From contig CACHCY010000003.1 of assembly GCA_902578495.1 (NCBI GenBank), positions 32,337 through 96,336 of the forward strand: a DNA stretch of 64,000 bases. Reading direction: 5' to 3'. The position numbers and the translations under genes are program-made. Below are positions 13,721 to 46,189 of this stretch, piece after piece. How positions within the stretch are numbered: position 1 is the first letter of the stretch; each line of letters opens with the position of its first letter. The stretch comes from an uncultured SAR86 cluster bacterium. GTDB lineage: Bacteria; Pseudomonadota; Gammaproteobacteria; Magnimaribacterales; AG-339-G14. The notes beneath the pieces are model-generated. The model was given only the letters and a program-made list of their open reading frames with translations, did no database searches and was not told the DNA's origin.

Positions 13721-13954
13721 ATGAGCAGCACACAAGAAAGAGTACAGAGAATTGTTTGCGAACAATTAGGCGTAAGTGAAGAAGAAGTTACTACAACAGC
13801 TTCGTTTATAGACGATTTGGGAGCAGACTCACTTGATACTGTTGAACTTGTAATGGCTTTTGAAGAGGAATTTGAAATTGAGATTCCTGATGAAGAAGCT
13901 GAGAAAATAGCAACTGTTCAAGATGCTATCAGTTACATAGAATCTGCATCTTAA
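13721..13954 (+). CDS. acpP: Acyl carrier protein
   Basis: [20 protein letters not shown]; SD GAGGT; upstream TATAAT. Confidence 0.97.
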
Positions 13955-13972
13955 CTCCATTCACATACACTC

Positions 13973-16147: not shown

Positions 16148-16178
16148 AAACATCTCCTTGTTTGATAAACTTTACTGA

Positions 16179-16772: not shown

Positions 16773-16773
16773 A

Positions 16774-18340: not shown

Positions 18341-18364
18341 AGAAAAGTAAATGTAGGAGACATT

Positions 18365-18595
18365 ATGATAGAAATTTGGTCAAAACCACAATGCCCATTC
18401 TGCGATGCAGCCGTTCAAATATGTGAAACAAAGGATTTGGAATTTAAAAAATATATGCTCGATGAAGATTTTAATCGAGAAGAATTCACGGAAAAATTTC
18501 CAAATGCCAGAACCTTTCCTCAGATTATCGTCGATGGGGAGTTAGTAGGTGGCTATCAAGAATTTAATCAATACGTCCAGACTAAATCTATATAG
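18365..18595 (+). CDS. Glutaredoxin
   Basis: CPFC, RTFPQI, VGGY; SD AGGAG. Confidence 0.92.
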   Translation: MIEIWSKPQCPFCDAAVQICETKDLEFKKYMLDEDFNREEFTEKFPNARTFPQIIVDGELVGGYQEFNQYVQTKSI

Positions 18596-18597
18596 CA

Positions 18598-26400: not shown

Positions 26401-26562
26401 GATATTGAAAACCAATGGTATTTCAGATTTTTCTCAAGAAATGCGCTCGATGAAGATAACATTACTTGGAAATATAACTCTACTGATGTGACAGGAAATT
26501 TCCAAAGTTACTTCTTGAGAGACCCAAGAGTAACTGGAATAGAGTACAGATATAGATTCTAA
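23452..26562 (+). CDS. TonB-dependent receptor 1
   Basis: Signal peptide, TonB-box region LEEIIVTAQK, RVEVLRGPQGTLFG, C-terminal YRYRF. Confidence 0.95.
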   Translation: MKFFHHLLIALFLFSSNFFAQSDNEDYTLEEIIVTAQKTEKSLQDVPIAVSALSADDLALRQAVRFTDLQLNVPNLSYSETNFGGSSVSIRGIGRLATGISFDQSVTTHINESPWGENTNVATMFDMDRVEVLRGPQGTLFGRGTTAGLVNLVTKRPSIDSGVEGYAGFTAGDYDLQVFEGAVNIPLDDNFAVRAAYTQTERDGFTENLYAPVGGTFDGREHYVGRISLRYDTGNTVIDYMYQEHEEESTRTLRTNYVCTPSTNIARGCTLDGEGIGIANPAATYNGILAAVFLESAPLGANTAAYTAFGLNDAPRPDNMTLRQTHSDFVPIFDRQSGTHQLTISHDLDKGRLSLNMMNRESSSYTRMDTTLAVEPLLGVKVSDNPLTYVGGLISVDMLDHCVADQCGTKGPTQAERLSGQSGKYVLQTTNRNSFIDGSSNEQLTEYLELKYSSDLDGIFNYIVGINHYGHYEDDSYLTTSSPLTLLGDAQFFVPTTFGNTNEYALEANGLFGELYFDVQDNLRITLGLRYGEEKKINDIVTTTYGQARNVGAFAGVPWLLVDGDLYNCFEGIAGAFGQAPDQAVIGQILTGQASNGCGVGDQETVDLYGVSAQVNAASAALAGGIAAAGQIADPQQQAIATGTAYATYFMSVKDLVPALYDRSEDYNKPGWESYQKNKLDYTTTAGRLIVDYAFGDDSLLYASYSRGTKPAGINPPINPRIYEKGLIPANTVEEKVDSYEIGIKSILLGGQMRLNTSLFYNKYTDMQISRILATTTFNFNIDSENYGAEIEMDYVPAAAPNLRLDFMFAYIKTKIMDDALTIDPFNISAEGTKYFDAKNTVYKCIDLFYEGEGCVANTFIADKDLVNAAQAVLASLDAWLPVPGTTQADGHPIYMSRVALSALGIPTTTGVKQSIDGNRLPNTPELTTSLGLSYNFEVGNGISVVPNIYYYYQSDMYVNEFNNALYGKVDAWDELNIGLTVGDIENQWYFRFFSRNALDEDNITWKYNSTDVTGNFQSYFLRDPRVTGIEYRYRF

Positions 26563-26577
26563 AATTATATTTAGATT

Positions 26578-26613
26578 AAAAAGCCTCTTTTAAATACAAA
26601 GGGGCTTTTTTTT
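26578..26613 (+). terminator. Intrinsic terminator after TBDR1
   Basis: AAAAAGCCTCTTT-loop-AAAGGGGCTTTTTTTT. Confidence 0.8.
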
Positions 26614-26758
26614 ATAAAAACACTAAATTTCAAAAATGAATAAAATCGTTTAATTTTTGCTAAATTTAAGATAGATTAGATGTTAAATACCTAAAAAAGG
26701 GAGTTTTTTAGGTTATTTCTACATGGAAGTTTAACTCAAAACAAAAAAGGGGAATGTT

Positions 26759-29700: not shown

Positions 29701-29902
29701 AGATCCATGGAACGAACTTTCAGCTCAGATCACAGTTACTCCATCTGATAAAGCTTGGTTTGTTTCATTCTATGGTCAAAATATTACCGATGAAGAAAAC
29801 ATTGACTTTATGGGTCTAGGAAGTTCAGCTGTTGGTAATACAAGAGGAATTGCTGCAAGAGAAAGAGCTAGATACGGAGTTAGAGCTGGATATAATTTCT
29901 AA
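26759..29902 (+). CDS. TonB-dependent receptor 2
   Basis: GLEEVTVTAQRQEQSLQ, RIEVIRGPAGTLFG, C-terminal GYNF. Confidence 0.95.
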   Translation: MSIKNLSSSFLVLTLIFTGIAFSQDSGLEEVTVTAQRQEQSLQDIPLAVSALTEDDLFEQQIEGPSDLQLTVPSLRFGSDQFSGGGGFEIRGVTNLAVSATADAGVATHVNDLAIGSTTLQDGNFFDMQRIEVIRGPAGTLFGQNSVGGALNFITAKGDTSGFYGNVRADVGDYGRLGTTAVFNIPLDDKVALRIATNTLVQDGLIENTYKGSGGFQNTDNRNQSAYRMTLTVEATDNTTINVVHQGSIEDSNRNLFAGTWCDRDPSLVVGCTPVEVQNQKFEITHPMGTFVENLLVAMGVLDFTPVTDMSGAPQEFWQVNQRGAPLYQVDEYLTQLIIEHQINDDLSLTAAASRKDRKFLRQSSYASPTLQALRFKDTPASPGGLVVMSGYSPGRDGGFASNPAGCDDVTAGLYGQYGGCVLDTLSYPTGFDHSNALSDTDSVEMKISSDYDGNHNFLIGLNHTDTFSDNHYDVGATGLDALAFKPPALYVGPTNAALGIQLYPSLYRTDSLNTITSSSVFGEYYFQARDDLRLTFGLRYNEDYKESLSRQAFVNVAGYAPGVVSDGAAAAIVGTLPSSAQTDPLIAGMADTVAAQQAGLLPAGAAAALWESVFCPSNGGFCALAGSIPDYGEVYRTTTGFDPEMEFSSTTGRFVVDYFINDDSMMYASISKGFKGGGINPAVDPIVFPNVPLAFPETNVWNVEIGFKNEFPDAGVRFNAAVFASQFDGYHVTKIIKKTSLNEGVDVDIMGAEFDLLYVPPSVPGLSVNASLSFTQSTIADGESALDPHNHDLQLTGGGKDWHLMKDVESEFFIVKKEALAAIWNSWLTETVTGGAATTPLDGIVAASAGTVSTEDLMAGLIPAEFHGDRTLGQPTPVSYLVPALGLTPAEGHLPSLADRSALGTMAQLHGFNLNPAAPDIQDGLDSDLSGNQLVHPDVMANVGLGYELDAGPVMVNFRLDYYYQGSRYVRIFNLPSDKLDPWNELSAQITVTPSDKAWFVSFYGQNITDEENIDFMGLGSSAVGNTRGIAARERARYGVRAGYNF

Positions 29903-31604
29903 AGTAAAGCTTAATCTACAAAAAACCCTGCTTTTATGTGGGGTTTTTTGTCTTGTCTTGTCTTGTAGTGATAATTTACATTTAAACATTGAAATAGAAT
30001 CTGGATTAATTGAAGGTTACGAGTCAGAAGACGGAACTATAAAATTTTTGGGTATTCCATATGCAGAACCTCCATTGGAAAATTTAAGATGGAAGCCACC
30101 TGTAAAAAAATTACCTTGGTCTGGGACTCTCAAAACTGTTGAACCAGAAAAAGCTTGTAGTCAACCAACAAATGATAGGACTGGAAATAATGCATTCTAT
30201 AAGTTGATACTTCAGGAATCAGGATTAGATCTATCGTCGTTAGAAGAAGTATCAGGATTTGATGAAGTTTCTGAGCTAAACACATCAGAAGATTGTTTAT
30301 ATCTTAATGTTGTAGTTCCTAAAGGTGGAGTTAAGAAGAAACCAGTTATGTTTTGGATTCACGGTGGGGCAGGTAGATGGGGCTCAGGACATGAAGGTAA
30401 TTATACTAGTTCATATCTTCCAAATCAGGGAGATGTGATTATTGTCACAATTCAATATAGGTTAGGTATTTTTGGCTGGTTAGCACATCCCGAACTCTCT
30501 AATGAATCAATACATGGTGTATCAGGAAATTATGGTACTTTAGATCAAATTCTTGCGTTGGAGTGGGTTCAGGAAAATATTTCAAGCTTTGGTGGAGATC
30601 CTAATAACGTCACTATTTTTGGTGAGTCTGCTGGAGGACAAGCAGTATCTTCTTTACTCATGTCACCACTTACAAAAGGTCTATTTCATAAAGCTATTTC
30701 TCAAAGTGGCTCAGCCATACCCAATATATCAATTCCATTGAAGGCTTCAGATTCTGGCGTCTCAGCAGAGAACTTTGGTATAAATGCAGTAAATTTTTTT
30801 CTTGGTCAAAGTGGATCGATTGAAGATTTTAGAAAGCTTCCAGCAAGAGAAATTGTTGAAATTAATGATCCTATGCTTGATAACACCATAATGGCTAACA
30901 TAAGCGGTCAAATTGTAGACGGTTACGTATTTCCAATTAACAGTTTGCAATCTTTTAAAAAAGGGAAAAATCATAAAGTTCCATATTTAATTGGATTCAA
31001 TGCAAACGAAGGAACGAGTCTCTTACCTTTAATTATAGATAAACAAATGTTTTCTTATTTTGGAGATACTTGGCCGTATGTTATTTGGTCATTCATTGAC
31101 CCAGAAGCAGCTCTTATGGCTTTTACTGATCCCTCTAAATTATCACCACCACCTGATCAATATTTAAACCTTATTGATACCAATGTAGATCCTTATAAAA
31201 CTGCAATTGATCTCTGGGGTGAAATGTTTTTTGGTGCTCCTGCATTTCATGCAGCTTTAAACCATAGTGAGCTAGCAAATACCTATTTATATTATTTTGA
31301 TGTTGATTTAAACGTTCCAAGTGATTATCTCGGTGCCACACATGCTCTTGAGCTAGGCTATCTATTTAATGAAGGTGGACTCTTCGGAATTGAAGAAACC
31401 ATAACTGATACGGATAGGATGATTGCAAAAGAGATTCGTAATGATTGGATTGAGTTTGCTAAACATGGGCGTATTGAGAGTTATATACCGTTTAGCTCTA
31501 AAAACCCTACTGCAAAAATTTATTCAACCAATATCAAAAATTCTCGTTTATGGAATGAAAATTTCTATAAATTTATGAGTGATTACTGGGATTCAACTAA
31601 TTAA
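29832..31604 (+). CDS. Type-B carboxylesterase/lipase, probable lipoprotein (start uncertain)
   Basis: FLGIPYAEPP..LRWKPP, SEDCLYLNV, WIHGG, FGESAGG, GATHALEL; lipobox VLSC. Confidence 0.9.
   Translation: MVIQEELLQEKELDTELELDIISKVKLNLQKTLLLCGVFCLVLSCSDNLHLNIEIESGLIEGYESEDGTIKFLGIPYAEPPLENLRWKPPVKKLPWSGTLKTVEPEKACSQPTNDRTGNNAFYKLILQESGLDLSSLEEVSGFDEVSELNTSEDCLYLNVVVPKGGVKKKPVMFWIHGGAGRWGSGHEGNYTSSYLPNQGDVIIVTIQYRLGIFGWLAHPELSNESIHGVSGNYGTLDQILALEWVQENISSFGGDPNNVTIFGESAGGQAVSSLLMSPLTKGLFHKAISQSGSAIPNISIPLKASDSGVSAENFGINAVNFFLGQSGSIEDFRKLPAREIVEINDPMLDNTIMANISGQIVDGYVFPINSLQSFKKGKNHKVPYLIGFNANEGTSLLPLIIDKQMFSYFGDTWPYVIWSFIDPEAALMAFTDPSKLSPPPDQYLNLIDTNVDPYKTAIDLWGEMFFGAPAFHAALNHSELANTYLYYFDVDLNVPSDYLGATHALELGYLFNEGGLFGIEETITDTDRMIAKEIRNDWIEFAKHGRIESYIPFSSKNPTAKIYSTNIKNSRLWNENFYKFMSDYWDSTN
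29920..29949 (+). terminator. Intrinsic terminator/attenuator after TBDR2, inside the esterase 5' coding region
   Basis: AAAAAACCCTGC-TTTTAT-GTGGGGTTTTTT (two G-U pairs). Confidence 0.65.
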
Positions 31605-31763
31605 TAAATAAGTAGGTATTTATATTATTTATACTTAACTATAAAAGTTGAGGTTGACTCAAAACAAAATTATAAAATTCAAAAAATAAAAATATTTAAA
31701 TTTTTACTGAATTAAGTTAGATTACTCATTAATTCAAGGAAGAAAACTTAAACAGGGAGTGTT

Positions 31764-34700
31764 ATGAAATTTTCATCTAAATTATTTTTAATTTTTTCTT
31801 TTCTTCTATCATCTTTTTCTTTTGTGCAAGAAAGTGATGGATTAGAAGAAGTAACAGTTACTGCTCAAAGACAAGAGCAAAGTCTTCAGTCAGTTCCTTT
31901 GGCAGTTAGTTCTTTAGACACTGATGATTTAGCAGTTAGGCAAATTGAAGAAGCTAAAGATCTTCAAATGTTTATTCCAGGCCTAAGATTTGGCGGAAAC
32001 ATTGGTGAGGGTTCCGGTTCTTTTGAAATAAGAGGAATGACAAACGGAGCTACTTCTGGAACTTCTGATCCCGGTGTGGCTGTTCATATTAATGATATGG
32101 CGGTAGGAGTTGTGGATGTCGCTTCCGGTGGTATTTACGATATGCAAAGAGTTGAGGTCATTAGAGGACCAGCAGGAACTCTATATGGAAGAAATGCGAT
32201 TGGTGGATCCATAAACTTTATTACAGCAAAAGCAGATACTTCAGGCTTTTACGGTTCATCTAAAGTTGATTTAGGTGACTACGGAAGATTTGGGACTGAA
32301 TCAGTATTTAATGTACCTTTAGACGATACAGTTGCATTAAGAATTGCAACTTACACTCTCAGACAGGATCCTCTTATTGAGAATATATATTCACAAGGTC
32401 AAGATATTGATAACAGAAATCAATCTGCTTACAGATTGACTCTTACTTTTGATGCTTCGGATAAAACAACAGTTAATGTCATTCATTCTGCATCGTTAGA
32501 GGACTCAACTAGAAATGTATCTGCTGGATCGTGGTGTGATAGAGACCCATCCCTTGTGGTTGGTTGTACTCAAGTTGCTCCAGAAAATCAAAAATTTGAA
32601 ATAGCTAATCCTATGTCTACATTTGTTGAGAATCTACTTGTTGCGCAAGGAGTATTAGATTTCACTCCTGTTACAGACATGTCTGGTGCACCGCAACAAT
32701 TCTGGCAAGTTAATCTTAGAGGAGCTCCTATGTACACGGTTGATGAATACCTCACTCAGGTGTTGATTGATCACGATATTTCTGATGAATTATTTCTTTC
32801 CGTTGCGGCAAGCAGAAAAGATAGAGATTTCAATAGAAGAGAGGCTTGGGAATCTCCTGAACTGGATACTCTTAGATTTTTAGATTCTCCAGCAACTCCT
32901 GGCGGGATAGGAACTATGTCAGACACATTTAATCCGGCATGTTCAGTTGAAAGTTATACTGCGGGTTGGTTTGGCGGCTGTATTCTTGATACCGTAAATA
33001 ATCCTGTTGGTGCTTTTGGATATATGAGTGAACAAATCACTGATTCAGTTGAAATGAAGTTGGTTTCAAGTTTTGATGGAGCTCACAACTTCCTTTTTGG
33101 TATGAACTATTATAAAAACGTAGGTGATACTAATACTGATGTTGTTGCTTCTGGTTTAGATGCTTTAACGAAAGCTCCTGCAGCGGCTTTAGTTGGCGCA
33201 CAATTAAATGCATTGGGTATTCAGCTATATGCACCTCACTTTAGAACAGGCAATATTGATACTATCGAATCTTCTGCGGTATTTGGAGAATACTACTATC
33301 AAGCTAATGATGATGTGAAAATTACCATAGGTCTTCGATACACAGATGATTTCAAAGAAGCTTTACCGAGCAATCCTTTCATTAACGTATTTGGATATCA
33401 AAAAGGTTTTATGACTGATGTTTTAGCCGGAATGCTTACAAGCGGTCAAGTCCCCAGCGCTGCTGCATGGGAGGCTCTTTTCTGTCCTCCAGGCGGCGCA
33501 TTTTGTCCAGCTGGTATTCCAGGTAGAGAAGGTTTAAGCGGTCCTGGTGAAGCTTATAAAGCAGCTGGTTTTGATACTACACTTGAGACAAGTAAGTTTA
33601 CTGGTAGATTCGTTGTTGATTACTTTATTAACTCTGATTCTATGATGTATGTCTCGCTTTCTAAAGGTTTTAAAGGTGGTGGAATTAATCCTGGATTTGA
33701 TCCAGGAGCTTTTGCTGGTGTTCCTACAGGTTTTCCAGATTCTGAAGTATGGAATGTAGAAGTTGGATTTAAGAATGAGTTTCCTGATCAAGGAATTAGA
33801 TTCAATGTTTCTGCTTATGCTTCGCAGGTTGAAAATTATCATATTGGTAAAATCATCAACAGAACTACAATTAATGAAGGAATTGATGTTGATATTACGG
33901 GTCTAGAAGCTGAGCTTTTAGTTGTCCCGCCTGAAGTACCTGGACTATCATTTAATGCTTCAATTAGTCTGACTAATTCTTCTATCGGTGACGGTGAAAA
34001 AGCTATTGATGTCATCAATAGAGACCTTCAGTTATCTGGTGGCGGAGCAGAGTGGCACCTGATGAAAGACGAGCAATCAGAGACTTATATTGTTAAGAAA
34101 ACTGCTTTGGCGGCTATGTGGCAAACAACTTTGCAAGAGGCCATTACTAATGGTGCAGCTACCACTCCTGCAGACGGTATTACTGCATTGAATCCTTCCT
34201 TGGATGGTCTAGGTCTAGTTTCAACAGTTTTCTTTAACCCAATAGAACATCATGGCGATAGAGCTTTTGGTGAACCTACTCCCGTGAGCTATTTCAATCC
34301 ATTTACTTTCGCAATGCCAGCAGATGGACACTTGCCATCTTTAGGTAATAGGTTAAGAAATAATGCTGATTTTGATCCATTAAGAGTATTAGCTCAGCTT
34401 CATGGATTTGATTTAGTAGCAGGAACTGATATCAGCGAAGGTCTGGAAACTGATTTATCAGGAAACAGTCTATACCATCCTGAAAGTCAAATTTCACTTG
34501 GTTTAGGGTATCTACAAGACGTTGGCGAAATTAAAATTAACTATCGTCTTGATTATTATATACAAGGCCAAAGATATAACAGGGTTTACAACTTAGCTAG
34601 TGATTATCTTGAAGGATGGGATGAATTAGGAGCACAAATCACTGTCTCAGACAGTGATGATTCTTGGTTCGTTCAATTCTACGGTCAAAACATTACTGAT

Positions 34701-34811
34701 AATGAAAGTATCTATTACAGAAATTTAGAAAGTACTGCAGTAGGTAATTATCAAAGAATCATGGCTAGAGAAAGAGCTAGATACGGTGTAAGAGCTGGAT
34801 GGAATTTTTAA
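31764..34811 (+). CDS. TonB-dependent receptor 3 (close paralogue of TBDR2)
   Basis: GLEEVTVTAQRQEQSLQ, WCDRDPSLVVGC, RERARYGVRAGWNF. Confidence 0.95.
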   Translation: MKFSSKLFLIFSFLLSSFSFVQESDGLEEVTVTAQRQEQSLQSVPLAVSSLDTDDLAVRQIEEAKDLQMFIPGLRFGGNIGEGSGSFEIRGMTNGATSGTSDPGVAVHINDMAVGVVDVASGGIYDMQRVEVIRGPAGTLYGRNAIGGSINFITAKADTSGFYGSSKVDLGDYGRFGTESVFNVPLDDTVALRIATYTLRQDPLIENIYSQGQDIDNRNQSAYRLTLTFDASDKTTVNVIHSASLEDSTRNVSAGSWCDRDPSLVVGCTQVAPENQKFEIANPMSTFVENLLVAQGVLDFTPVTDMSGAPQQFWQVNLRGAPMYTVDEYLTQVLIDHDISDELFLSVAASRKDRDFNRREAWESPELDTLRFLDSPATPGGIGTMSDTFNPACSVESYTAGWFGGCILDTVNNPVGAFGYMSEQITDSVEMKLVSSFDGAHNFLFGMNYYKNVGDTNTDVVASGLDALTKAPAAALVGAQLNALGIQLYAPHFRTGNIDTIESSAVFGEYYYQANDDVKITIGLRYTDDFKEALPSNPFINVFGYQKGFMTDVLAGMLTSGQVPSAAAWEALFCPPGGAFCPAGIPGREGLSGPGEAYKAAGFDTTLETSKFTGRFVVDYFINSDSMMYVSLSKGFKGGGINPGFDPGAFAGVPTGFPDSEVWNVEVGFKNEFPDQGIRFNVSAYASQVENYHIGKIINRTTINEGIDVDITGLEAELLVVPPEVPGLSFNASISLTNSSIGDGEKAIDVINRDLQLSGGGAEWHLMKDEQSETYIVKKTALAAMWQTTLQEAITNGAATTPADGITALNPSLDGLGLVSTVFFNPIEHHGDRAFGEPTPVSYFNPFTFAMPADGHLPSLGNRLRNNADFDPLRVLAQLHGFDLVAGTDISEGLETDLSGNSLYHPESQISLGLGYLQDVGEIKINYRLDYYIQGQRYNRVYNLASDYLEGWDELGAQITVSDSDDSWFVQFYGQNITDNESIYYRNLESTAVGNYQRIMARERARYGVRAGWNF

Positions 34812-34825: not shown

Positions 34826-34857
34826 AAAAAAACCCTGCTAATGCAGGGTTTTTTTTT
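34826..34857 (+). terminator. Intrinsic terminator after TBDR3
   Basis: AAAAAAACCCTGC-TAAT-GCAGGGTTTTTTTTT. Confidence 0.88.
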
Positions 34858-34903
34858 GATTAAGACATTATTGTTATAAAATACAAACTAAGGTTTTACC
34901 CAA

Positions 34904-35917
34904 ATGATCAAATATATTAATAATATTGCTGGTATTTTAATTTTATTAAATATTTTTGATCAAATTTTTTCTTCAAGCAAAATCATTCCAGAAAACATTT
35001 ATTTTGATATTTTTGTTATAACTTCGTATATTTTTTTTGGGGCAGAGTTTATTTTTAGGATTCTTATTGAAAGAAGATTTTCTTTCTTGTTAGTTTTTGA
35101 TTTTGTTGTTTTGGCTAATTATGTTTTCTTTGGTTTTTACGATTTAAGAATATTAAGAATTTTTAGAGCTTATTCAATTTATAGTAATCATAAGATGTTA
35201 CTACCAACAAACACCTTATTAAGAACAGTGTATAACCAACGTTTAGCGCTATTAGGCTCTCAGATAATGGTTTTTTCAGTTCTGTTGATTTTTTCTACTT
35301 TAATTCACTTTATTGAGAGGGATATTAATCCTGAATATTTTGGATCTATTCTTAACTCAATGTGGTTTGGAATAGCTACCTTAACAACAGTAGGATACGG
35401 GGATGTAACTCCTTCATCTCCTTTAGGTCAAGTTTTAACTTCTTTAACGATGTTTTTAGGTATCGGAATGTTTGCATTGCCTGCAGCAATTTTAGCTTCA
35501 GCTTATTATGAGGAAATTCAAAAAAGAAATTTTCTTATCACGATGGAAACAATTTCGAGTATTCCACTATTCTCAATGTTGCCAATAGGCGCTTTAAGTA
35601 AAATTAACGATAAGTTGGTTGCAGAGATTTATCCTGCTAAAAGAAAGATCATCGAAAAAGGTGATGAGGCAGACTGCATGTACATTATTGAATTTGGATC
35701 TGTTCAGGTTGAAATTGAATCTCCAGTTACTTTGGGGCAGGGTGACTATTTCGGAGAAAAAGGAATCCTTTCTAAGGAGTTGCGTAATGCATCAATTAGT
35801 TCTCTGGAAGAAGTTAAACTACTTTCTTTGTCAAAAGAAGATCTTGAAGAATTAATGGAAGAGTATCCCCATCTCTTTGAAGAGCTTGAAAAAGTTAGTT
35901 TAGATAGAACCGGTTAA
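34904..35917 (+). CDS. Cyclic-nucleotide-regulated K+ channel (MloK1-like 6TM + CNBD)
   Basis: S4 LRILRIFR, filter TTVGYGD, CNBD with GD.ADCMY, YFGE...RNAS. Confidence 0.9.
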   Translation: MIKYINNIAGILILLNIFDQIFSSSKIIPENIYFDIFVITSYIFFGAEFIFRILIERRFSFLLVFDFVVLANYVFFGFYDLRILRIFRAYSIYSNHKMLLPTNTLLRTVYNQRLALLGSQIMVFSVLLIFSTLIHFIERDINPEYFGSILNSMWFGIATLTTVGYGDVTPSSPLGQVLTSLTMFLGIGMFALPAAILASAYYEEIQKRNFLITMETISSIPLFSMLPIGALSKINDKLVAEIYPAKRKIIEKGDEADCMYIIEFGSVQVEIESPVTLGQGDYFGEKGILSKELRNASISSLEEVKLLSLSKEDLEELMEEYPHLFEELEKVSLDRTG

Positions 35918-36657
35918 TTAAACGAATAAGAGAATTTCGTACTTAATCCTTGATCATCCTCAACGGCATTGAGTATAGGTACTGAATCATATGCAATATC
36001 GTACTGCAGGCTGATACTAAATTTTTCATTAACTTTAAAATTAAAAGCCATCAAGAGGCTTGTTTTGTAATCGTTAAAATCTAATATATCGGGTTGATAA
36101 TAAATAGTCGTATTGAAGTTAACGTTTTCAGCGATTTCAAAATTATCATGGAAATATAGAGAGAATCTTGTTGTATCAGTGACCGAATCTTCTAAATCAG
36201 TTTCTTCTTCATAGATAACTCCTGCTCCAAATCTCATTTGATCATCTATGATCATTCTAAGACCTGTCCCAAAAAGATTCCTTTCTCTGAATAATCTAAA
36301 TGGATTCTTGGCCGATTGAATAAAAAATTCCGTATTGTATTGATTGTATGTTTCGAAAACAGATCGTATGTGAATGAGTTGAGAGATATCGGTAACGTTT
36401 TGATTTATTTTCCTCTCAGATTTTCTGAGAATCATGAAATTCTCGACGTCATCAAGATTGTAATCAAACCTTAGGTCAAATGAATAGAAATCTCTGTCTC
36501 TATTTCCTCTAGATGCATTTAAAGAAAAACCTAATCCAGCAAAAAAACCTTCTTTACCTTCGTTTCTTAACTCTTCTATATTCACAATAGTTTGAGACAT
36601 AGCCAAGGAGGGCAAGAACAATGTAATGAAGAGGAGTTTATTTAGTTGTTGCAACAT
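35914..36657 (-). CDS. DUF481-like outer-membrane beta-barrel protein
   Basis: Signal peptide, IVNIE.LR, alternating beta-strand pattern, C-terminal FSYSF. ATG at 36657 preferred over the track start. Confidence 0.72.
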   Translation of the reverse strand: MLQQLNKLLFITLFLPSLAMSQTIVNIEELRNEGKEGFFAGLGFSLNASRGNRDRDFYSFDLRFDYNLDDVENFMILRKSERKINQNVTDISQLIHIRSVFETYNQYNTEFFIQSAKNPFRLFRERNLFGTGLRMIIDDQMRFGAGVIYEEETDLEDSVTDTTRFSLYFHDNFEIAENVNFNTTIYYQPDILDFNDYKTSLLMAFNFKVNEKFSISLQYDIAYDSVPILNAVEDDQGLSTKFSYSFN

Positions 36658-38821
36658 ACGCTCCATTCCAATTTGGATCAGCTAAATTCCGCTTCATGTC
36701 TTTAATTCTGTCTTTAAAAATAGCGTAGTATAGATCAAACTCAATGACTTGTTGTTTCCATTTTTCAATAAAGTTTAAAGCTATATCCCATTGTTGATTT
36801 CTATAATTTTGAAGAAATTCTTCATGATCTTTAATAAACTCTGTTAATTTTCTATCTTTTAATGAGAATTCATCGAAAGAAGTATAGATTTTTACGGGTT
36901 CATTTTTCCCTTTTACTTGAATCAGATCTAATTCGAAAAGATTTACATTTGATTTAAGAGCATTCACTGTTTCGTGGCCTAGAATCCTCTGAAAACCATA
37001 AGTTCCAGATTGACCCTCTAATCTTGAAGCAAGGTTAACAGGATCACCTAAGACCGTATAATCAAACCTTTTTTCAGAACCCATATTCCCAACAATACAT
37101 TCACCGGTATTGATTCCAATACCAATTTTTAGTTCCATGCCTTTCTGTTTTTGGAATTCAATATTAAATTCCTCTAATGCTTTTTCCATATCAAAAGACG
37201 CTTTTAATGCTAAATCAGTATGATTATCTTGATCAGTGGGTGCATTCCAAAAAGCCATAATGCAATCTCCCATATATTTATCAATAGTACCGTCATTATC
37301 TAAAATTTCATTAGACAAAACAGTGAGTAGGTTGTTTATCAATTCGGTTAATTCTTCAGGATTAGATTTATAACTTTCTGATATGGCTGTAAATCCTCTA
37401 ATATCAGAAAATAGGAAGGTCATATTTTTCTTCTCTCCACCAAGCTTTAGCGATTCACTTGATTCAGCAAGTCTAGAAACCATTTCTGGAGCTAAATATT
37501 GAGAGAATGCTGTCCTAACCTTGCTTCTTTCTAGCTCAGTAAAAAGAAAATTAAAGAAAGTAATTATTAAGTAACTTGTTAAGCATATTATTAAAGGAGA
37601 AATAGGATCTATTAAATAATCTAATTCGTTGAAGCCATAGAAAGAACCGTAAAGACTGCTTAAATTTGCTACTAAAAATGTTATCAAGCCCCCGATAGGA
37701 CCAAAATATTGAATGATTAAGCAAATCAAAATAGAAAAAAGTAAGCCAAATAAAAACTCTGCTCCTTCCATCCAATCTGGTCTAACTAAAAACTCTCCAT
37801 TTATAATTTGTTGAATTCCTTGGGCAATGATCGTGACACCAGGTATATCTTTCTCAAGAGACGTATTTCTAATATCTAGCAGTCCTGACGCACTTGTACC
37901 TACAAGGACAATCTTTCCAGCAAAGAATTCTTTATCAAAAGTATTATTTATGACTTCAAAGGCTGAAATTATGTTCAAATTTTCTTTAAATGTTGAATGT
38001 AGCCAGAGGTAACCGTTTGAATTAGTAGGAATTATTACGTTTCCAAGTTTTACGTTGTTGATACCAGTACTTTCACCAAAAGCTAACTCTCCTGAAGCAT
38101 TAGATGACTTGATTTGATACGTGCTTGCTCCTATCGCAACCCTTAAGGTTTCCAGCATCAAAGATGGTACTATCTGTCCATTCACCACTTCAAATGTTGG
38201 CAAGCTTCTGACAATACTTGAATCTCCTCCAATACTCATAGACCCAACTCCAGCAGAAGAATCTATTAAAGCGGGTAAATTATTTTGCATACCTGTGTAA
38301 TTAGGAAGAAATTCTTTTGGTGAGTCACCTTGAATTATTAGGCCGTATTTAGGTGCTGTGTCCTCAGTTATTAATGTATTATTTGGTGCACTTCCCAGAA
38401 CAACAGTAGAGTGTGATTGCATAGACTCAGCAAAAACTCTGTCATTTGGTTTTATTTTTTTTAACTCATTAATAAGATCAGAATTTGTTGAATATTGCTC
38501 AGAAAGAACGTCACTTCCAGTTCTATCTCTTTCAGCAAAAACAATATCAAATGATGTAGTAAGAGCCTGCTCTGTATTACTAACTAATCTAGATAATAGA
38601 TCTCTAGACCATGGCCATTGACCTAGATTATTTAGCGACTGATCATCAATATCAATTATTACAACGGGATCATCTTCTAACTGATCCCTTGGGCTTATTT
38701 GCTGCAAAGTATCAAAAGCAAACAATCTTAAATCATTAAAAATATTTAATGGATTCGCTAAAGGAATTAATCCTATTAAAATAGCTAAAGGTAGAAGTAA
38801 TTTTTTTTGAATGTTCTTCAT
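36638..38821 (-). CDS. CHASE2-domain class III adenylate cyclase
   Basis: IIDIDD.SL...GQWPWSR (CHASE2), three TMs, FSDIRGFT, DKYMGDC, RFDYTVLGDPVNLASRLEG. Confidence 0.94.
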   Translation of the reverse strand: MKNIQKKLLLPLAILIGLIPLANPLNIFNDLRLFAFDTLQQISPRDQLEDDPVVIIDIDDQSLNNLGQWPWSRDLLSRLVSNTEQALTTSFDIVFAERDRTGSDVLSEQYSTNSDLINELKKIKPNDRVFAESMQSHSTVVLGSAPNNTLITEDTAPKYGLIIQGDSPKEFLPNYTGMQNNLPALIDSSAGVGSMSIGGDSSIVRSLPTFEVVNGQIVPSLMLETLRVAIGASTYQIKSSNASGELAFGESTGINNVKLGNVIIPTNSNGYLWLHSTFKENLNIISAFEVINNTFDKEFFAGKIVLVGTSASGLLDIRNTSLEKDIPGVTIIAQGIQQIINGEFLVRPDWMEGAEFLFGLLFSILICLIIQYFGPIGGLITFLVANLSSLYGSFYGFNELDYLIDPISPLIICLTSYLIITFFNFLFTELERSKVRTAFSQYLAPEMVSRLAESSESLKLGGEKKNMTFLFSDIRGFTAISESYKSNPEELTELINNLLTVLSNEILDNDGTIDKYMGDCIMAFWNAPTDQDNHTDLALKASFDMEKALEEFNIEFQKQKGMELKIGIGINTGECIVGNMGSEKRFDYTVLGDPVNLASRLEGQSGTYGFQRILGHETVNALKSNVNLFELDLIQVKGKNEPVKIYTSFDEFSLKDRKLTEFIKDHEEFLQNYRNQQWDIALNFIEKWKQQVIEFDLYYAIFKDRIKDMKRNLADPNWNGAYVATTK

Positions 38822-38858
38822 TTTCTTTTTATAAAACCTTTATAATTGACGCCTTGTC

Positions 38859-40181
38859 ATGTCTATTAAATATATTTTATTACTATTTATCTTTTGTTTC
38901 GGTGTTTTTGCATTAGCACAAAACGTACCACCGACTATATCGGATCCTGAGCAATTAGAAACCATTAGAAAAGAAAGGCAAGCTATTTTTGATGAATTAA
39001 TAGAAGACCCAACTAATCAAGGTAATTTATTTAAATACGCTAACTTATCAATTATTTTAGGAGATTTAGAGGCTGCGATAGGAGTCTTTGAACAAATGTT
39101 AATTTACGATCCTACTCTGGCAAGAATCAGGCTAGAACTAGGAGTGCTTTATTTCAGGCTAGAAGCCTACGCTCCAGCAAAACTATACCTTGATAGTGTT
39201 AAAGACTATGATCCACCTCAGGAGGTTATTACTAAAGTTGATTCCTTTTTAGCAGCTATTGAAGAACAGGAAAAACCACTGACGGTTAATCAATTGATGA
39301 CTTTTGGACTTGCTAGCTCTACAAACGCCAACGCTGGTATAGATGCCGATATTATAGAAATTGCTGGTTTTCCTCTTGAAGTTTCTCCTGATTCAAAACC
39401 TCAATCTGATTCAAAATTCTCTGTAAATTACAATTTATCTTTGACTCAAAATTTGAATAATCCTCGCGGTGATGCAATTAATTATTTTCTTGCGGTTGCA
39501 ACCACCTATCAATCTAGATTTACACAATTTGATCAAAGAAGTTTTGTTTTTGGTTTAAATAGTAGTTTAGATGTAGAAGAGGGTAGTCTAGGGGTGCTAA
39601 AAAATCCATCAGTAACTCCAAGTTTTACGAGAATTCAAGTTTACTTGCAAGGAAAGCCTCTGCTTGAATCTAATGCTTTCACCGTGAGTCACTCTGGATC
39701 TTTATCGAATGGTTCTGTTTTTGAATATGGTTTTAACGTAGATAAAAGAAATTTTATTGGGTTAGAGGCAAAGAGCGGTTATCGATACGGAACTTTTGTA
39801 AATAATACTTTTAATCTTCCGAATAATAATTCTAGTTGGACTATGAATATCTTCTCCGATAAATACGAAGCCAATCAAAAATTCGAGTCTTTTAGGCAAT
39901 GGGGTTTTGGTTTTAATTATAGAATGCCTCTCCCAGATGCATGGGTCATGGCCGCGAATTATGATTGGTCTACTAAAAACTATCTTGCTCCTAACGGTCC
40001 TCTTGGAACAAGAAAAGATATTAATGAATCATCAGATTTAACCTTTTCAAGACTCTATATAAATTGTTTATCTATGAATATTTTTCTAAAACCGTTCGAT
40101 AATAGAAGTAGCATTGATATATTTTCAAGAAGTAACACTGATGTAGGTGTAAACCTTTCTTATCTTTGTTTAAATAACTAA
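38859..40181 (+). CDS. Secreted TPR plus probable outer-membrane beta-barrel protein (DUF560/Slam-like)
   Basis: Signal peptide, TPR helices (AAIGVFEQML...RIRLELGVLYF), beta-strand-rich C-terminal region. Confidence 0.65.
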   Translation: MSIKYILLLFIFCFGVFALAQNVPPTISDPEQLETIRKERQAIFDELIEDPTNQGNLFKYANLSIILGDLEAAIGVFEQMLIYDPTLARIRLELGVLYFRLEAYAPAKLYLDSVKDYDPPQEVITKVDSFLAAIEEQEKPLTVNQLMTFGLASSTNANAGIDADIIEIAGFPLEVSPDSKPQSDSKFSVNYNLSLTQNLNNPRGDAINYFLAVATTYQSRFTQFDQRSFVFGLNSSLDVEEGSLGVLKNPSVTPSFTRIQVYLQGKPLLESNAFTVSHSGSLSNGSVFEYGFNVDKRNFIGLEAKSGYRYGTFVNNTFNLPNNNSSWTMNIFSDKYEANQKFESFRQWGFGFNYRMPLPDAWVMAANYDWSTKNYLAPNGPLGTRKDINESSDLTFSRLYINCLSMNIFLKPFDNRSSIDIFSRSNTDVGVNLSYLCLNN

Positions 40182-40213
40182 CCTTAAATTTTACTTGAGT
40201 ATATAATCCGCAG

Positions 40214-40939
40214 ATGAATCAAATAGTTCAATTTTTCTTAAAGATTAGAAATAGTCGTTTTTTTAATGGAATAGTAATTTTTGTAATCATCGGCTCTGCT
40301 ATTTATGCAGGAGTTAGTTCTTATGATCTCTCAGAGAATTACGTCGAATTATTGAACTTTTTAGATACCGCAATAACAGTTTTCTTCTTAATAGAGATTC
40401 TTATCAGAATAGTCGCTGAACGATCTCTAATTAAATTCTTTAAAGGCGGTTGGAACGTCTTTGATTTTATCATCGTAACTGTCAGTTTAATTCCAATCAC
40501 TGGAGGAGAGACGGCATTTGTTGCAAGATTACTCAGGATTGTCAGGGTATTGAGAATTATCACTGTTGTACCTGCCTTGAAAAAAATTGTAGATGCGCTG
40601 TTTGAAACGCTTCCAAGAGTTGGTTTTGTAGCTCTTTTAATGTTTATTTTCATCTATATATGGGCAGCTATAGGTACTTTAGTCTTTGGTCCAACGGATC
40701 CAGAACACTGGGGCAATATTGGTCTTGCTATGCTTACTCTTGCACAAGTTGCAACATACGATGACTGGGCTGCTGTTATGAAAGATATTATTGAGGTATT
40801 CCCTTGGGTGTGGATCTACTTTATTAGTTTCATTCTGCTTAATGCAGTCATCATGTTGAACATGGTAATTGGAATCATTGTCGACGTTATGTCCAAGAAA
40901 TCAAGCAGCGGCCAGTTAAGTGCTGATGAGAATCAATAA
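40214..40939 (+). CDS. Voltage-gated cation channel (BacNav/NaChBac family) with TYDDW filter
   Basis: S2 E...RI, GWNVFDFII, S4 RLLRIVRVLR, pore QVATYDDW, S6 LNMVIGIIVD. Confidence 0.9.
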   Translation: MNQIVQFFLKIRNSRFFNGIVIFVIIGSAIYAGVSSYDLSENYVELLNFLDTAITVFFLIEILIRIVAERSLIKFFKGGWNVFDFIIVTVSLIPITGGETAFVARLLRIVRVLRIITVVPALKKIVDALFETLPRVGFVALLMFIFIYIWAAIGTLVFGPTDPEHWGNIGLAMLTLAQVATYDDWAAVMKDIIEVFPWVWIYFISFILLNAVIMLNMVIGIIVDVMSKKSSSGQLSADENQ

Positions 40940-41168
40940 TTTTCTGATTCTTATTTTCTTATTATCTTTATTTTCTTGCTCCTATCAAAAGGTAGTGAAA
41001 AATTCTATGTATGATTTAGATGAATTTGATGCATGTTATTTAGATCATAAATCTACTCTAGACACCGAGAAACAGAAGTATCTAGATATGCTTATAGAGT
41101 TAAGAAATTATAATTGTTCTCGGTATTATGAACTTTTTGTGAGAGGAACAATTATTCAGGGATATTAA
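40926..41168 (+). CDS. Small hypothetical lipoprotein
   Basis: Hydrophobic leader with LFSC lipobox and two more Cys; overlaps the 3' end of the channel gene. Confidence 0.55.
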   Translation: MRINNFLILIFLLSLFSCSYQKVVKNSMYDLDEFDACYLDHKSTLDTEKQKYLDMLIELRNYNCSRYYELFVRGTIIQGY

Positions 41169-42937
41169 AACCAAAATATCAGAAGCAGTGGGGTTGAGAT
41201 AGCTATTATGAGTAATTCTAAAGGCAGACCTAATTTCCAGTAATCTCCAAACTTATAATTACCTGGTCCCATTACTAAAGTATTGCATTGGTGTCCAATG
41301 GGAGACAAGAAAGCGCAACTTGCACCTATAGCAACACACATCAAAAATGGTTCAGAGGGATAACCAAGCTGATCTGCAATAGTAACTGATATGGGCCCCA
41401 TAATAACTGCAGTAGCTGCATTGTTAATAACATCTGATAAACACATTGTTGCTACCATTAAAATGACTAGGGTCCCGACTAGACCAAATTGAATTGATTG
41501 GGCCGCTATTGCTGTAGCTAATATATTTGTTAGACCGCTTTCATATAAAGCATCTCCTATAGGAATCATGGCGCCAAGCAACACAATAACAGGCCACTCA
41601 ATATGACGATAAAGCATGTTTGGTTTTAGTAGTTTAGATGCTACAAATGCTAATACACATAATAAGAATGCTATGACTACATTTAAAAAGTTTGTGATAA
41701 CTAGAAGAAGACTAAAAGAAAATAATCCAAGAGAAAGTAAGACTTTAGAATCATCCTTTATTACATCTAACTCTCTTTGCCAGAGAGGCATTAAACCAAG
41801 ATCTTGCATTTTCTCACTAGTATCTTTTTGCTCTTCTCTTGAAGCAATTAACAATACATCTCCAGCTTTAAAATGCTCGTTTGAAAGACTTCCTTGAAAA
41901 TTTGTACCTTTTCTCCACAGACCAAGAACTGCCATTTGTCTACCAACCATATTTGAAAAATAGCTTATAGTTCTTCCAATTAATCTTGAACCCGGAGAAA
42001 TCATAGTTTCAATTTCACCGAAACTACCCGAATCAAGATCTTTAATTTCAGTTCTTAGGGATAGACCGTACTTATCCTGAAGTCCAGATACTTCCTCAGG
42101 ATTGATTTTTAAAAGTAAAATTTGAGATTCTTTTAATTCCTCAAAATTACTTAAAATCTCTCTGGCATCAGAGGTTTCATTTACCGATCCTATTAGTACT
42201 ATATCTGAACCTAACTCTTTCCTAAATTCTTGAGTTCTTTTACCTATAAGATCGCTATTCTTATTAATGACAAGTTCAACTAAATATTCATTAATATCAA
42301 CTAAAGATGACGAATCAATTTCTCCAGATCTATTTTTTACAAGAATGAAACCTAGCAGCGCAATGAAAATCACGCCTCCAATGCTCACAGGCAGCCCAGC
42401 ATAAGCAAAGTCAAAGAATTCAAATCCCTGATCTGAATATTGGTCTCTAAATTCAGAAATAATAATATTTGGTGGAGTTCCTATTTTTGTATTCATTCCC
42501 CCAAGAATTGATGCAAAAGCTAAGGGCATCAGAAATTTGGAAGGGGACCAGCTCATTTTTTGGCATATACCTAAAGTTACAGGTAACAACATGGCCATAG
42601 CACCAATATTATTCATAAAAGAAGATAAAATAACCGCAATACCCATCAAAATAACCAAGAACTGAAATTCGGTGTTAGCAATCTTTTGCAACAGATTACC
42701 AATTTTTCCAATCAATCCTGATGCTTCTAGACCTTTACTAATAAGTAAAACAAGCGCAACTGTAATAACTGCGGGATGACCAAAACCCACAAATGCCTCT
42801 TTGGCTGGAACAAAACCAAGAACAACTAAAATTGCAAGACTTGTCAATGCTACTGCATCGTAGCGAAATCTGCCCCAAATAAACATAGCAACCATAACTA
42901 AGAGTATGGCTGATAGGATGATTTGATTGGTTTCCAT
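41165..42937 (-). CDS. SLC13/CitMHS-family permease with TrkA-C domains
   Basis: GFGHPAVITV, SFMNNIG, TKIGTPPN, INNAATA, FLSPIGHQCNTLVMGPGNYKFGDY. Confidence 0.88.
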   Translation of the reverse strand: METNQIILSAILLVMVAMFIWGRFRYDAVALTSLAILVVLGFVPAKEAFVGFGHPAVITVALVLLISKGLEASGLIGKIGNLLQKIANTEFQFLVILMGIAVILSSFMNNIGAMAMLLPVTLGICQKMSWSPSKFLMPLAFASILGGMNTKIGTPPNIIISEFRDQYSDQGFEFFDFAYAGLPVSIGGVIFIALLGFILVKNRSGEIDSSSLVDINEYLVELVINKNSDLIGKRTQEFRKELGSDIVLIGSVNETSDAREILSNFEELKESQILLLKINPEEVSGLQDKYGLSLRTEIKDLDSGSFGEIETMISPGSRLIGRTISYFSNMVGRQMAVLGLWRKGTNFQGSLSNEHFKAGDVLLIASREEQKDTSEKMQDLGLMPLWQRELDVIKDDSKVLLSLGLFSFSLLLVITNFLNVVIAFLLCVLAFVASKLLKPNMLYRHIEWPVIVLLGAMIPIGDALYESGLTNILATAIAAQSIQFGLVGTLVILMVATMCLSDVINNAATAVIMGPISVTIADQLGYPSEPFLMCVAIGASCAFLSPIGHQCNTLVMGPGNYKFGDYWKLGLPLELLIIAISTPLLLIFWF

Positions 42938-43171: not shown

Positions 43172-43648
43172 ATGAAGAGAATAAACATGAAAAAATTTAA
43201 CAAAGTATTGATCCTTCCTTTGTTAGTTCTTGTTCTAGCAAATTGTGCTGGAACTAACGTTACAACTTATTCATCTGCATCAATTATGCTTGATGACTTT
43301 ATTGATCAAAACGGCGGTAAAGGTGAAGTTAATGATGAAACATTGCACTATGCTTTAGACATTCAAACTTTGTCTTGTTCTGAGATGCAAGCTAATAGAA
43401 TAAGAATCTCTAATTTAATCAATAATTTATCTGAAAAAGTAGTAGAAAATGCGAATAGAAGTACAAGTTATTCAACTTATGGATTAACAAAGCACGATCC
43501 TTTAATTGGTACTAGTTTTATCGGCATAAGCTCTGTAGGTTTAAATCCAGAAGTAACGGAATATAGAAAACTTAAATTAGTCTTAGAAGAACTTAACACT
43601 ACTTCTATCCTCAAGTGTACTCCACCTGAGGTAATGAGAACTCCGTAA
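43172..43648 (+). CDS. Hypothetical lipoprotein
   Basis: SD GGAG, LANC lipobox, two further Cys. Confidence 0.65.
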   Translation: MKRINMKKFNKVLILPLLVLVLANCAGTNVTTYSSASIMLDDFIDQNGGKGEVNDETLHYALDIQTLSCSEMQANRIRISNLINNLSEKVVENANRSTSYSTYGLTKHDPLIGTSFIGISSVGLNPEVTEYRKLKLVLEELNTTSILKCTPPEVMRTP

Positions 43649-44653: not shown

Positions 44654-45364
44654 TTATCTTCTAGGCCAGGCTTTAACCGGAATTACCAAAGAAGTATTTA
44701 ATACTTCTCTCATTCCTTTTACTTTCCTTGAAAATTTTTCAAAAGCTTTTGAAGATGTTAGTTCCGTAGCTCCATCAGTTAAAGTTACAAAATCAGATGC
44801 TCCGATATAAACAAAATGAGTAAATTCATCGTTACCATATAGAACTCTGTTTAGTCCATAAGAGCTTGTAACAGATCCTGATTCAACATTGGATTCCATT
44901 AGTTCTGACCAAGCCTCAGCGTACTCTTCTTCGTTTTCTAGGCTCATTCTCATATCATATTTAGTGAAAGCACTATCAACAGTCCAATCATTGGCTTCAA
45001 TGATAGGGACAATTGCTAGGTCTGATACTGGGCTAGCCGAATTCATCAACGATCCAAGCATTGTGGCAGCTTCTGGACAGCTTTGAGTTAGTGCGCCTGC
45101 GTTTTGAAAATCTTCTCTAGTCATGTAAGAGGCAATAATAAAGTGCGTTGAATCACTTGCTCCATTTAGAGTTTCAGACATTAATCCTAAGTCGCCTGGA
45201 AATTTCTTACCGCAATCAGAAGCATGAAACTTATCCAAAGCTGAAATTACACCGGCTGGATTCGTTACATTCATATGATAGAAAACATGCATCACATGCC
45301 TTTCAGTTTGTGCAAAAATAAATCCAGATGAAATAAAAGTAATTAATATAAATAATTTTTTCAT
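44654..45364 (-). CDS. Unknown secreted protein, paralogue A
   Basis: Signal peptide, SD AAGGAG, motifs shared with 45384-46082 and 51346-52071. Confidence 0.8.
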   Translation of the reverse strand: MKKLFILITFISSGFIFAQTERHVMHVFYHMNVTNPAGVISALDKFHASDCGKKFPGDLGLMSETLNGASDSTHFIIASYMTREDFQNAGALTQSCPEAATMLGSLMNSASPVSDLAIVPIIEANDWTVDSAFTKYDMRMSLENEEEYAEAWSELMESNVESGSVTSSYGLNRVLYGNDEFTHFVYIGASDFVTLTDGATELTSSKAFEKFSRKVKGMREVLNTSLVIPVKAWPRR

Positions 45365-45383
45365 ATTTTCTCCTTAAAAATGA

Positions 45384-46082
45384 TTATTGTTGTGGCGCCC
45401 AATCTTTAACAACGCCAGACATATTTACTGCTTTAAGTTCTCTGATATTTGAAACTTTCTTTATAAAGTCGGTATATTCTTTAGTAGGAGTAACGTTACT
45501 CATGTATCCATCTAAATAAACATCTATATCTTTAAATCCACAATAAGCAAAATGAGTACCGTATCTTTCAACATTCATTCCAGGACCCATGGCAACCAAA
45601 GCCCAAGATCCAGCACATTGTTCGCCTGAACTCATCAGGCTTGAATAAGCCTTTGCATAGTTTGCAGGATCTTTTACATCCATTAAAAATACTTGAAATA
45701 CTTGATCAGCATTAGGATCTCCGTCACCCATTAAAGGCATTCCCATAAACTGATACGTTTGTTCAGATATCTCATTCATAGTATTGAGGAATTTTCCTGC
45801 TGCAGGGCAATTAGTCCAATTATTTGCCCACATTAAATAAGACATTTTATTAGGAAATGTAACAATAATTGTATGAGTAGTCTCCTCTGGTCCATTGAAA
45901 AGCTCCTGCATTAATCTGACAGAAGATGTTCCTGGACAGTTAGCATTTGAAAGACTATCCAAAGCAGAAACAACAGCCAGTGGATTGTCAGTTTTAATTC
46001 CAAAAAATGCTTGGAATGGTCTTTCTTGAGCTGCAACAAATGTTGAACCCATTAAAGCCACTATTAATAATATTTTTTTCAT
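45384..46082 (-). CDS. Unknown secreted protein, paralogue B
   Basis: Start moved to ATG 46082 (MKKILL, SD AGGAGA); signal peptide; paralogous motifs. Confidence 0.8.
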   Translation of the reverse strand: MKKILLIVALMGSTFVAAQERPFQAFFGIKTDNPLAVVSALDSLSNANCPGTSSVRLMQELFNGPEETTHTIIVTFPNKMSYLMWANNWTNCPAAGKFLNTMNEISEQTYQFMGMPLMGDGDPNADQVFQVFLMDVKDPANYAKAYSSLMSSGEQCAGSWALVAMGPGMNVERYGTHFAYCGFKDIDVYLDGYMSNVTPTKEYTDFIKKVSNIRELKAVNMSGVVKDWAPQQ

Positions 46083-46189
46083 AATATCTCCTATATTAGA
46101 ACTTTTAATATATATCATTAATAGAGCTAATGTAACGGAAAAAACACCAAAAATAGCGTAAATTGATTAATGTATGAGTTAGAAATCCA

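Follow-up and report, generated by a model that had tools for sequence, protein, structure and literature searches.

This locus raises the question of what a receptor cyclase, a cyclic-nucleotide-gated K+ channel and a voltage-gated channel, encoded within about 8 kb, do together in the streamlined genome of an uncultured SAR86 cluster bacterium. The window analysed here is the whole stretch of 64,000 nucleotides taken from contig CACHCY010000003.1 (assembly GCA_902578495.1); the source genome (G000) is 1.18 Mb and 88% complete. In the original prediction these three genes formed the core of a relay in which a periplasmic ligand raises cAMP and the resulting K+ flux is passed on, as a voltage change, to a cation/Ca2+ channel, the locus lying right after an array of TonB-dependent receptors (TBDRs). 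The core found here differs and consists of the cyclase, the K+ channel, a Slam-like outer-membrane barrel and a giant FecR/cadherin protein encoded outside the window. Gene content, motifs, a single cyclic-nucleotide-binding domain (CNBD), linkage and coupled loss were observed directly. On this basis the whole chain, from a surface antenna through the CHASE2 cyclase and cAMP to a K+ current, would form a co-inherited envelope-to-ion-channel module, a reading to which we give about an even chance. The core genes are as follows.

34904..35917, + strand: MloK1-type K+ channel with a C-terminal CNBD (Ion_trans and cNMP_binding by Pfam); likely module output
36638..38821, - strand: class III receptor cyclase with a CHASE2 domain and residues of the ATP type (PF05226 and PF00211)
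38859..40181, + strand: Slam-like (type 11 secretion-like) outer-membrane protein with TPR helices and a 14-strand barrel; predicted exporter of the FecR/cadherin giant
G000 C2:147243-153950 and C2:154032-160757: giant FecR/cadherin open reading frames (ORFs), two copies

The cyclase and the K+ channel

Class III cyclases that use ATP carry two metal-binding Asp residues, Lys and Thr/Asp for ATP, and catalytic Asn and Arg. The window cyclase retains both metal Asp residues, the DKY Lys, the Thr and the catalytic N/R, as originally read; the same residues recur in orthologues, all three catalytic motifs being present in 41 of 42 distinct sequences. No other class III cyclase was found in this 88% complete assembly, nor was a class I cyclase or a Crp helix-turn-helix.

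The K+ channel has the filter TVGYGD and the phosphate-binding cassette FGE...RNA. The filter and the cassette Arg were kept in 42/42 distinct orthologues, with the CNBD directly after the pore, so that the channel with an intact CNBD was borne out. Its closest solved structure was MloK1 (E 9e-44), which aligned without gaps over residues 105-337. MloK1 of Mesorhizobium loti (PDB 2zd9) likewise has a GYGD pore joined directly to a CNBD with the cassette FGE...R; the module channel differs in the cassette (R-N-A vs R-S-A) and in its shorter S1-S4 region, and is set apart as the only CNBD protein found in its genome, inherited with one cyclase. In profile searches it was the only PF00027 match. 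The absence of a CRP-like regulator, which left the channel as the only visible receptor in the window, extends to the genome (no PF13545 match and no second CNBD). The genome also encodes TrkH, which means that K+ uptake has another route and that the channel need not be a housekeeping importer.

An order-wide sample of 196 genomes (completeness at least 75%) was searched. The cyclase query matched 41 of them, and one weak match at 30% identity (G186) was dropped, leaving 40 genomes in 6 of 21 genera, a patchy distribution. A single CNBD locus lay 1-2 kb from the cyclase, by coordinates, in 39 of the 40, and no CNBD protein beyond the K+ channel was found in these 39; in the remaining genome (G047) the locus was interrupted by a contig end. 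Among the 156 genomes lacking the cyclase, a CNBD was absent from 150, and one of the six exceptions was a K+ channel at a contig end (L253). CNBD counts and linkage, together with the coupled loss described below, strongly support the proposed pairing, and these comparisons make it quite probable that the K+ channel is the cAMP receptor of the cyclase, presumably binding the nucleotide and being gated by it.

Coupled loss of the module genes

Sixteen loci of the second (voltage-gated) channel came from genomes without a cyclase match; 12 were searched for remnants, and none of the K+ channel, cyclase or barrel was found in these 12. G178 and G179 retain a scar before the second channel, made up of the giant's final 29 codons, and the gene formerly upstream of the K+ channel is joined to this scar. 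The second channel of both genomes is almost identical to that of the intact G180, and the module loss is, judged from these sequences, very recent.

In G073, G082 and G083 (81-87% complete; no CNBD match) the gap between the permease and MscS measures 28-56 bp where intact relatives have the K+ channel, and that between MscS and the second channel 103-111 bp, at the site of DUF481, cyclase, barrel and giant in relatives. This two-sided loss around a retained MscS indicates that presence of the K+ channel follows the cyclase and not the flanking genes. In the second-channel tree G073 stood apart from G082 and G083; the sequences may reflect two separate loss events, or possibly one allele spread by recombination.

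The Slam-like barrel and the giant protein

The AlphaFold model of the TPR/barrel protein (pLDDT 86) has helices to residue 137 and 14 long strands. Its fold matches were CymA, OmpG and BcsC; no solved Slam structure was among the Foldseek matches listed. TPR_19 was present in 54/54 members of the barrel family, and the look-alikes in the Atlas include SlipAM clusters. The Slam (DUF560) proteins combine a TPR domain of about 140 amino acids (aa) with a 14-strand barrel, as stated in the available part of PMC8406197. The window barrel has this layout in the model and no match to PF04575, and for this reason is called Slam-like and not a Slam member. A barrel paralogue in L152 scored 23.8 against the PF04575 cut-off of 22. 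In the sister genus, L151 and L152 (G043 and G044) hold a second pair of barrel and 1,222-aa FecR cargo elsewhere in the genome.

The only FecR-domain proteins in the source genome are encoded by the tandem ORFs on contig C2, each about 2,240 aa long; giants in intact loci have 2,050-2,700 residues. Each of the two copies opens with a signal-peptide-like start and a FecR head. An acidic linker (about 200-250 residues, 40-78% Asp/Glu) leads to cadherin repeats, after which come a variable middle and a conserved tail. Identity between the copies is 91% for the head and about 70% for the tail, against 21-29% for the middle, to which the Atlas assigned no family. The modelled tail has eight strands at residues 187-329, forming an 8-strand barrel, with NHBA, TbpB, HpuA, LbpB and fHbp as best fold matches (E 9e-6 to 4e-3). 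A weak TbpB_B_D match was obtained for the distant giant homologue L220. The FecR head was found in 34 of the 196 genomes, 33 of which carry the cyclase. A secreted ORF of 1,078 aa without a family label (G000 C2:140046-143279) lies near the giants, and a homologue at 26% identity follows the 1,222-aa cargo in L152.

Cargo of the type 11 secretion system (T11SS) include TbpB, LbpB, HpuA, fHbp, NHBA and hemophilin (PMC8406197, PMC12282271); a C-terminal 8-strand barrel is described as their shared feature in the available part of PMC8406197. The giant likewise is a predicted secreted protein whose C terminus forms an 8-strand barrel with this fold, and in intact loci its gene neighbours that of the barrel protein. 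Unlike known T11SS cargo, it reaches 2,000-2,700 aa with a FecR head, an acidic linker and cadherin repeats, and its barrel partner lacks PF04575. The word 'cyclase' was absent from the main texts of both papers, and 'FecR', 'CHASE' and 'cadherin' from that of PMC12282271 (word searches, supplements excluded). From the modelled fold and the adjacency, the barrel probably exports the giant.

Gene order across lineages

Seven ORFs were confirmed at their predicted coordinates and with their predicted domains (ORF list, Pfam). Beside the core genes listed above, the locus contains the following features.

34826..34858, + strand: terminator-like hairpin with a U run, between the TBDR and K+ channel genes (sequence, fold statistics)
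35914..36666, - strand: DUF481 outer-membrane barrel (PF04338); near-core, translationally coupled behind the cyclase
40214..40939, + strand: NavRh-like six-transmembrane (6TM) voltage-gated cation channel (PF00520), filter TYDDWAA, without a long C-terminal tail; conserved neighbour, not obligate
40920..41168, + strand: lipoprotein-like ORF (80-82 aa, no family); genus-specific passenger, in same-genus loci only
41165..42937, - strand: SLC13/DASS permease with TrkA-C domains (Pfam); peripheral neighbour

The DUF481 and cyclase genes overlap by 29 bp, and the TPR/barrel start lies 37 bp from the cyclase start. The K+ channel gene is convergent with the DUF481/cyclase unit and thus not part of that operon. 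For six genes of the module region, dN/dS (the ratio of nonsynonymous to synonymous rates) was 0.004-0.072 against four same-genus relatives, with 2 of 24 comparisons saturated; at the sequence level all six are under purifying selection. A promoter scan was at chance level (35 observed vs 37.9 expected). RNA-library contigs from four studies overlap pieces of module genes, the K+ channel in three of the four; their shares were small and were not counted. One of 2,121 nt covers 38943-41053; such contigs show neither transcription nor its level.

Cyclase and K+ channel were linked in 39 of the 40 cyclase genomes, and to this extent the predicted conservation of the neighbourhood held; the second channel is a conserved neighbour too, and also occurs in 27 genomes without the cyclase. 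Eighteen cyclase-centred loci of two other families all contain K+ channel, DUF481 and cyclase, and 17 the barrel. The giant is directly 3' of the barrel in 15 of these loci, and the second channel directly behind the giant in 8, most others being cut by the locus edge. The order, with the K+ channel convergent with DUF481-cyclase and followed by barrel, giant and second channel, is intact in both families. DUF481 adjoins the cyclase in all 18 of these loci and in 20/20 loci of the source genus and its sister genus. It is detached from the cyclase in loci of genomes titled Woeseiaceae, and in L247 (G079) and L249 (G101) it stands beside the second channel with no cyclase between or nearby, L247 being cut by a contig end.

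The sister genus has the arrangement broken at the barrel-giant junction: none of its 10 cyclase loci includes the second channel, which lies directly behind a giant in 10/10 loci that reach past the giant's end. In the source genus the giant is relocated, and barrel and second channel are adjacent in 9/10 loci, one being cut. The Woeseiaceae-titled genomes hold the same genes, rearranged but complete, with the second channel behind the giant; one CNBD was present in three of four and none was found in the fourth. A close CHASE2 orthologue occurred in only 4 small genomes among 121 sampled of that family. Woeseiaceae-titled sequences nested with family f3 in three quick trees, while monophyly of the order was not rejected by an approximately unbiased (AU) test (p 0.217). 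The sequences suggest that the whole module was transferred between the order and the Woeseiaceae-titled genomes, with its direction not established. Trees of cyclase, channel and barrel show matching genus groups.

Further afield, barrel, FecR protein and CHASE2 cyclase occur without the K+ channel in L193, L194, L223 and L229, and partial sets in L219, L222 and L226, L219 lying near a Crp-type gene. In L203, L205, L206, L212 and L214 (about 9900-18700 each) the place of the cyclase after barrel and FecR protein is taken by a protein of 1,040-1,110 aa. The three of these proteins that were scanned are TPR-CHAT (caspase-like), and in such loci a protease may be the output coupled to the barrel/FecR input.

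Proposed mechanism

The C-terminal 8-strand barrel of the giant would direct its export through the TPR/barrel protein. The FecR-like head might then stay periplasmic on the acidic linker, with the cadherin repeats speculatively holding the variable region off the cell. By analogy with NsrA-CyaK, binding or tension at the variable region would alter cyclase activity via CHASE2. cAMP would open the K+ channel, the sole CNBD protein, whose loss is coupled to that of the cyclase, and within seconds the K+ current would alter membrane potential or turgor, bypassing transcription factors altogether. This change may also act on the voltage-gated channel.

The outer-membrane partner anticipated for the cyclase is supported, in the form of the Slam-like barrel with its giant cargo-like protein, and the likely input is this giant Slam-type cargo instead of a small periplasmic ligand. 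The closest precedent is in Sinorhizobium meliloti, where, in the available parts of PMC13001267 and PMC7529298, CHASE2 cyclases (CyaK, CyaD1, CyaD2) are switched on via the outer-membrane protein NsrA and signal by way of Clr. Both systems join a CHASE2 receptor cyclase and an outer-membrane barrel to a cAMP output. A FecR-domain gene also lies near a CHASE2 cyclase in S. meliloti (PMC5498481, available part), as in the module. The two differ in effector, the Crp-family protein Clr there against a K+ channel here, where no Crp-type regulator was found. NsrA is a protein of about 1,200 aa whose barrel occupies residues 600-1200, whereas the module has a 440-aa barrel and a separate giant, a comparison made from the published description available. 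The component families are known, as is the logic leading from the outer membrane to CHASE2 and cAMP. No description of the module, of a giant-antenna input or of an ion channel as sole output was found in the literature covered, which left out most subscription papers and supplements; supplementary tables on T11SS co-occurrence could list these proteins.

Several points weigh against this reading. The counts come from genomes that are related and incomplete, and are not independent. For the export step, the window barrel had no match to PF04575 (DUF560), with weak matches in only 5 of 54 family members (best E 0.0017); the fold matches of the giant tail have low TM-scores, and none of 29 tails matched Pfam TbpB or TbpB_B_D. 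The giants of the source genus are unlinked from the barrel, no giant was matched in 7 of the 40 cyclase genomes (incomplete assemblies), and L168 (G091, 92% complete) has cyclase and K+ channel without an adjoining barrel or giant. In S. meliloti the FecR-domain gene smc02177 is dispensable for signal perception, according to the part of PMC5498481 available. The search of the genome for a cAMP phosphodiesterase returned ApaH, LpxH, an LpxH-like protein and a YfcE-family protein but no recognisable CpdA-type or class II enzyme, and this leaves signal shut-off unexplained. A predicted complex between CHASE2 and the FecR head of the giant scored 0.00, which gives no verdict and is evidence for neither side.

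Candidate enzymes of cAMP turnover are a metallo-beta-lactamase-fold hydrolase with RNase Z-like matches (window 59829-60890) and the YfcE-family protein, on contig C7.

The voltage-gated channel

The second channel has four S4 Arg residues and the filter TYDDWAA; its closest bacterial structure was 4dxw (E 3e-63), which we take to be NavRh. With NavRh (4dxw), CavAb/CaChBac, CavMr and NavPp it shares the 6TM homotetramer type and the four S4 Arg. Its two filter Asp, at positions 3 and 4, sit at the positions of the engineered Ca2+-selective CavAb/CaChBac mutants; those have a third Asp at position 7, where the natural filter has Ala, and the CavMr-type Gly at position 4 is absent as well. In the available part of PMC8677417, Ca2+ selectivity of CavMr depends on this Gly, and the Asp-rich filter of NavPp gave Ca2+ block and no Ca2+ selectivity, selectivity depending on the scaffold. 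These precedents mean that an Asp-rich filter alone does not establish Ca2+ selectivity. TYDDW or TFDDW was kept in 35 of 40 distinct homologues. The distant homologues in L236 (G610) and L251 (G118) have the filter TLEGWPD, with the CavMr-type Gly.

The channel was found in 62 of the 196 genomes, comprising 35 of the 40 with the cyclase and 27 without; ten of the latter were distant homologues (40-47% identity). Judged by this distribution, it is a conserved neighbour that does not require the cyclase and has a role of its own. A cascade in which a type 11-exported giant antenna senses touch or a ligand and acts, by its periplasmic FecR head, through CHASE2 and cAMP on the K+ channel, and the voltage step fires a Ca2+ channel with the Asp-Asp filter, is an unlikely extension.

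Alternative explanations

The relay first proposed, from a small periplasmic ligand, perhaps imported by TBDRs, through cyclase, cAMP, K+ channel and voltage to a Ca2+ channel, is quite improbable. In its favour, the second channel accompanies the cyclase in most cyclase genomes, is located immediately after giant or barrel in all lineages examined, the rearranged Woeseiaceae-titled loci among them, and mostly keeps its filter. Against this, some of the cyclase-free genomes that carry it are near-complete (G154, 96%; G142, 91%), module deletions leave it intact, the NavPp precedent speaks against selectivity, and the giant is not accounted for. The TBDR link itself was rejected: TBDR adjacency was found in 10/10 same-genus loci and in 0/10 sister-genus loci (one cut by a contig end), and the hairpin separates the TBDR from the K+ channel (fold z -4.93; 0/200 shuffles equally stable; absent from the listing of a consensus scan).

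A defence system of the Pycsar kind was likewise held to be doubtful. The giant would detect phage or predator, and a cAMP-gated K+ flux would collapse the membrane potential, leading to dormancy or death. The patchy presence, the very recent loss in G178 and G179 as against G180, the variable middle of the giant beside its near-constant head and the occurrence of the module cyclase in only four small genomes of another family would all suit such a role, as would the related barrel-FecR loci that lead into TPR-CHAT proteases. Like Pycsar, the module places a class III cyclase beside a dedicated CNBD-bearing effector, and PADLOC returned domain-level matches to PycC and PycTIR. These were limited to single shared domains: only the catalytic-domain and CNBD stretches matched, no full-length PycC match was obtained, and membership of Pycsar is not supported. 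Unlike Pycsar, the module has a CHASE2 membrane receptor cyclase with purine (ATP)-type residues, a channel with a K+ filter and envelope partners. Its gene order is stable in three families, with congruent genus groups, unlike a fast-turnover island, and its loss could equally mean that the giant is costly when phages use it as a receptor.

Homeostasis without external sensing is also given a low probability. The cyclase would monitor export or folding of the giant, or envelope stress, and trim K+ and turgor in concert with MscS, DUF481 and the SLC13 permease. All three do recur in the neighbourhood, and DUF481 proteins are annotated as salt-induced. However, MscS and the permease remain where cyclase and K+ channel have been lost and are unlinked in some lineages, and a variable distal region suits ligand binding more than quality control.

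Chance clustering of unrelated membrane genes, to which mixed divergent and convergent orientations and varying peripheral genes might point, is very improbable and was rejected, being largely refuted for cyclase, K+ channel, barrel and giant by linkage that persists through rearrangement and 55-60% divergence and by K+ channel loss that tracks the cyclase and not the flanking genes.

Neighbouring genes

The small lipoprotein and the permease are peripheral to the module. The permease lies near it in g1, g4, g8, g10 and g18, on differing sides, is not beside it in g20 loci and is retained after module loss. A 158-aa lipoprotein-like ORF of no family (window 43172-43648) follows the permease; a paralogue is directly behind MscS (G000 C4:99888-100304), a homologue follows the giant in L166, and the family may be part of the module periphery. 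The two lipoprotein ORFs were unrelated to each other on comparison. MscS and a gene that we take to be YegP-like recur near the module, and in L161-L177 a variable TetR-family gene, which accompanies the giant in the sister genus, is often inserted between cyclase and barrel.

Upstream, window 23452-34811 encodes three TBDRs, each about 1,015-1,050 aa long, and a carboxylesterase that separates the third from the second; the array is variable in the genus, with identities of 52-98%. Window 44654-46118 holds a tandem pair of secreted ORFs (236 and 244 aa, no family) that differ in copy number and orientation among close relatives.

Significance

Prokaryotic cyclic-nucleotide-gated channels are standard structural models, and to our knowledge their native opening trigger is unresolved. 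A genome whose one cyclase and one CNBD protein are lost together in relatives makes the native trigger of such a channel directly testable, and the module offers a candidate input and output for the widespread trio of Slam, FecR and CHASE2 proteins. If the unlikely extension to the voltage-gated channel were true, very small free-living ocean bacteria would possess a transcription-free excitation cascade resembling that of a sensory neuron, moved between orders as a unit. The giant would extend type 11 cargo to more than 2,000 residues, and the module suggests that abundant, streamlined marine bacteria may sense surface contact.

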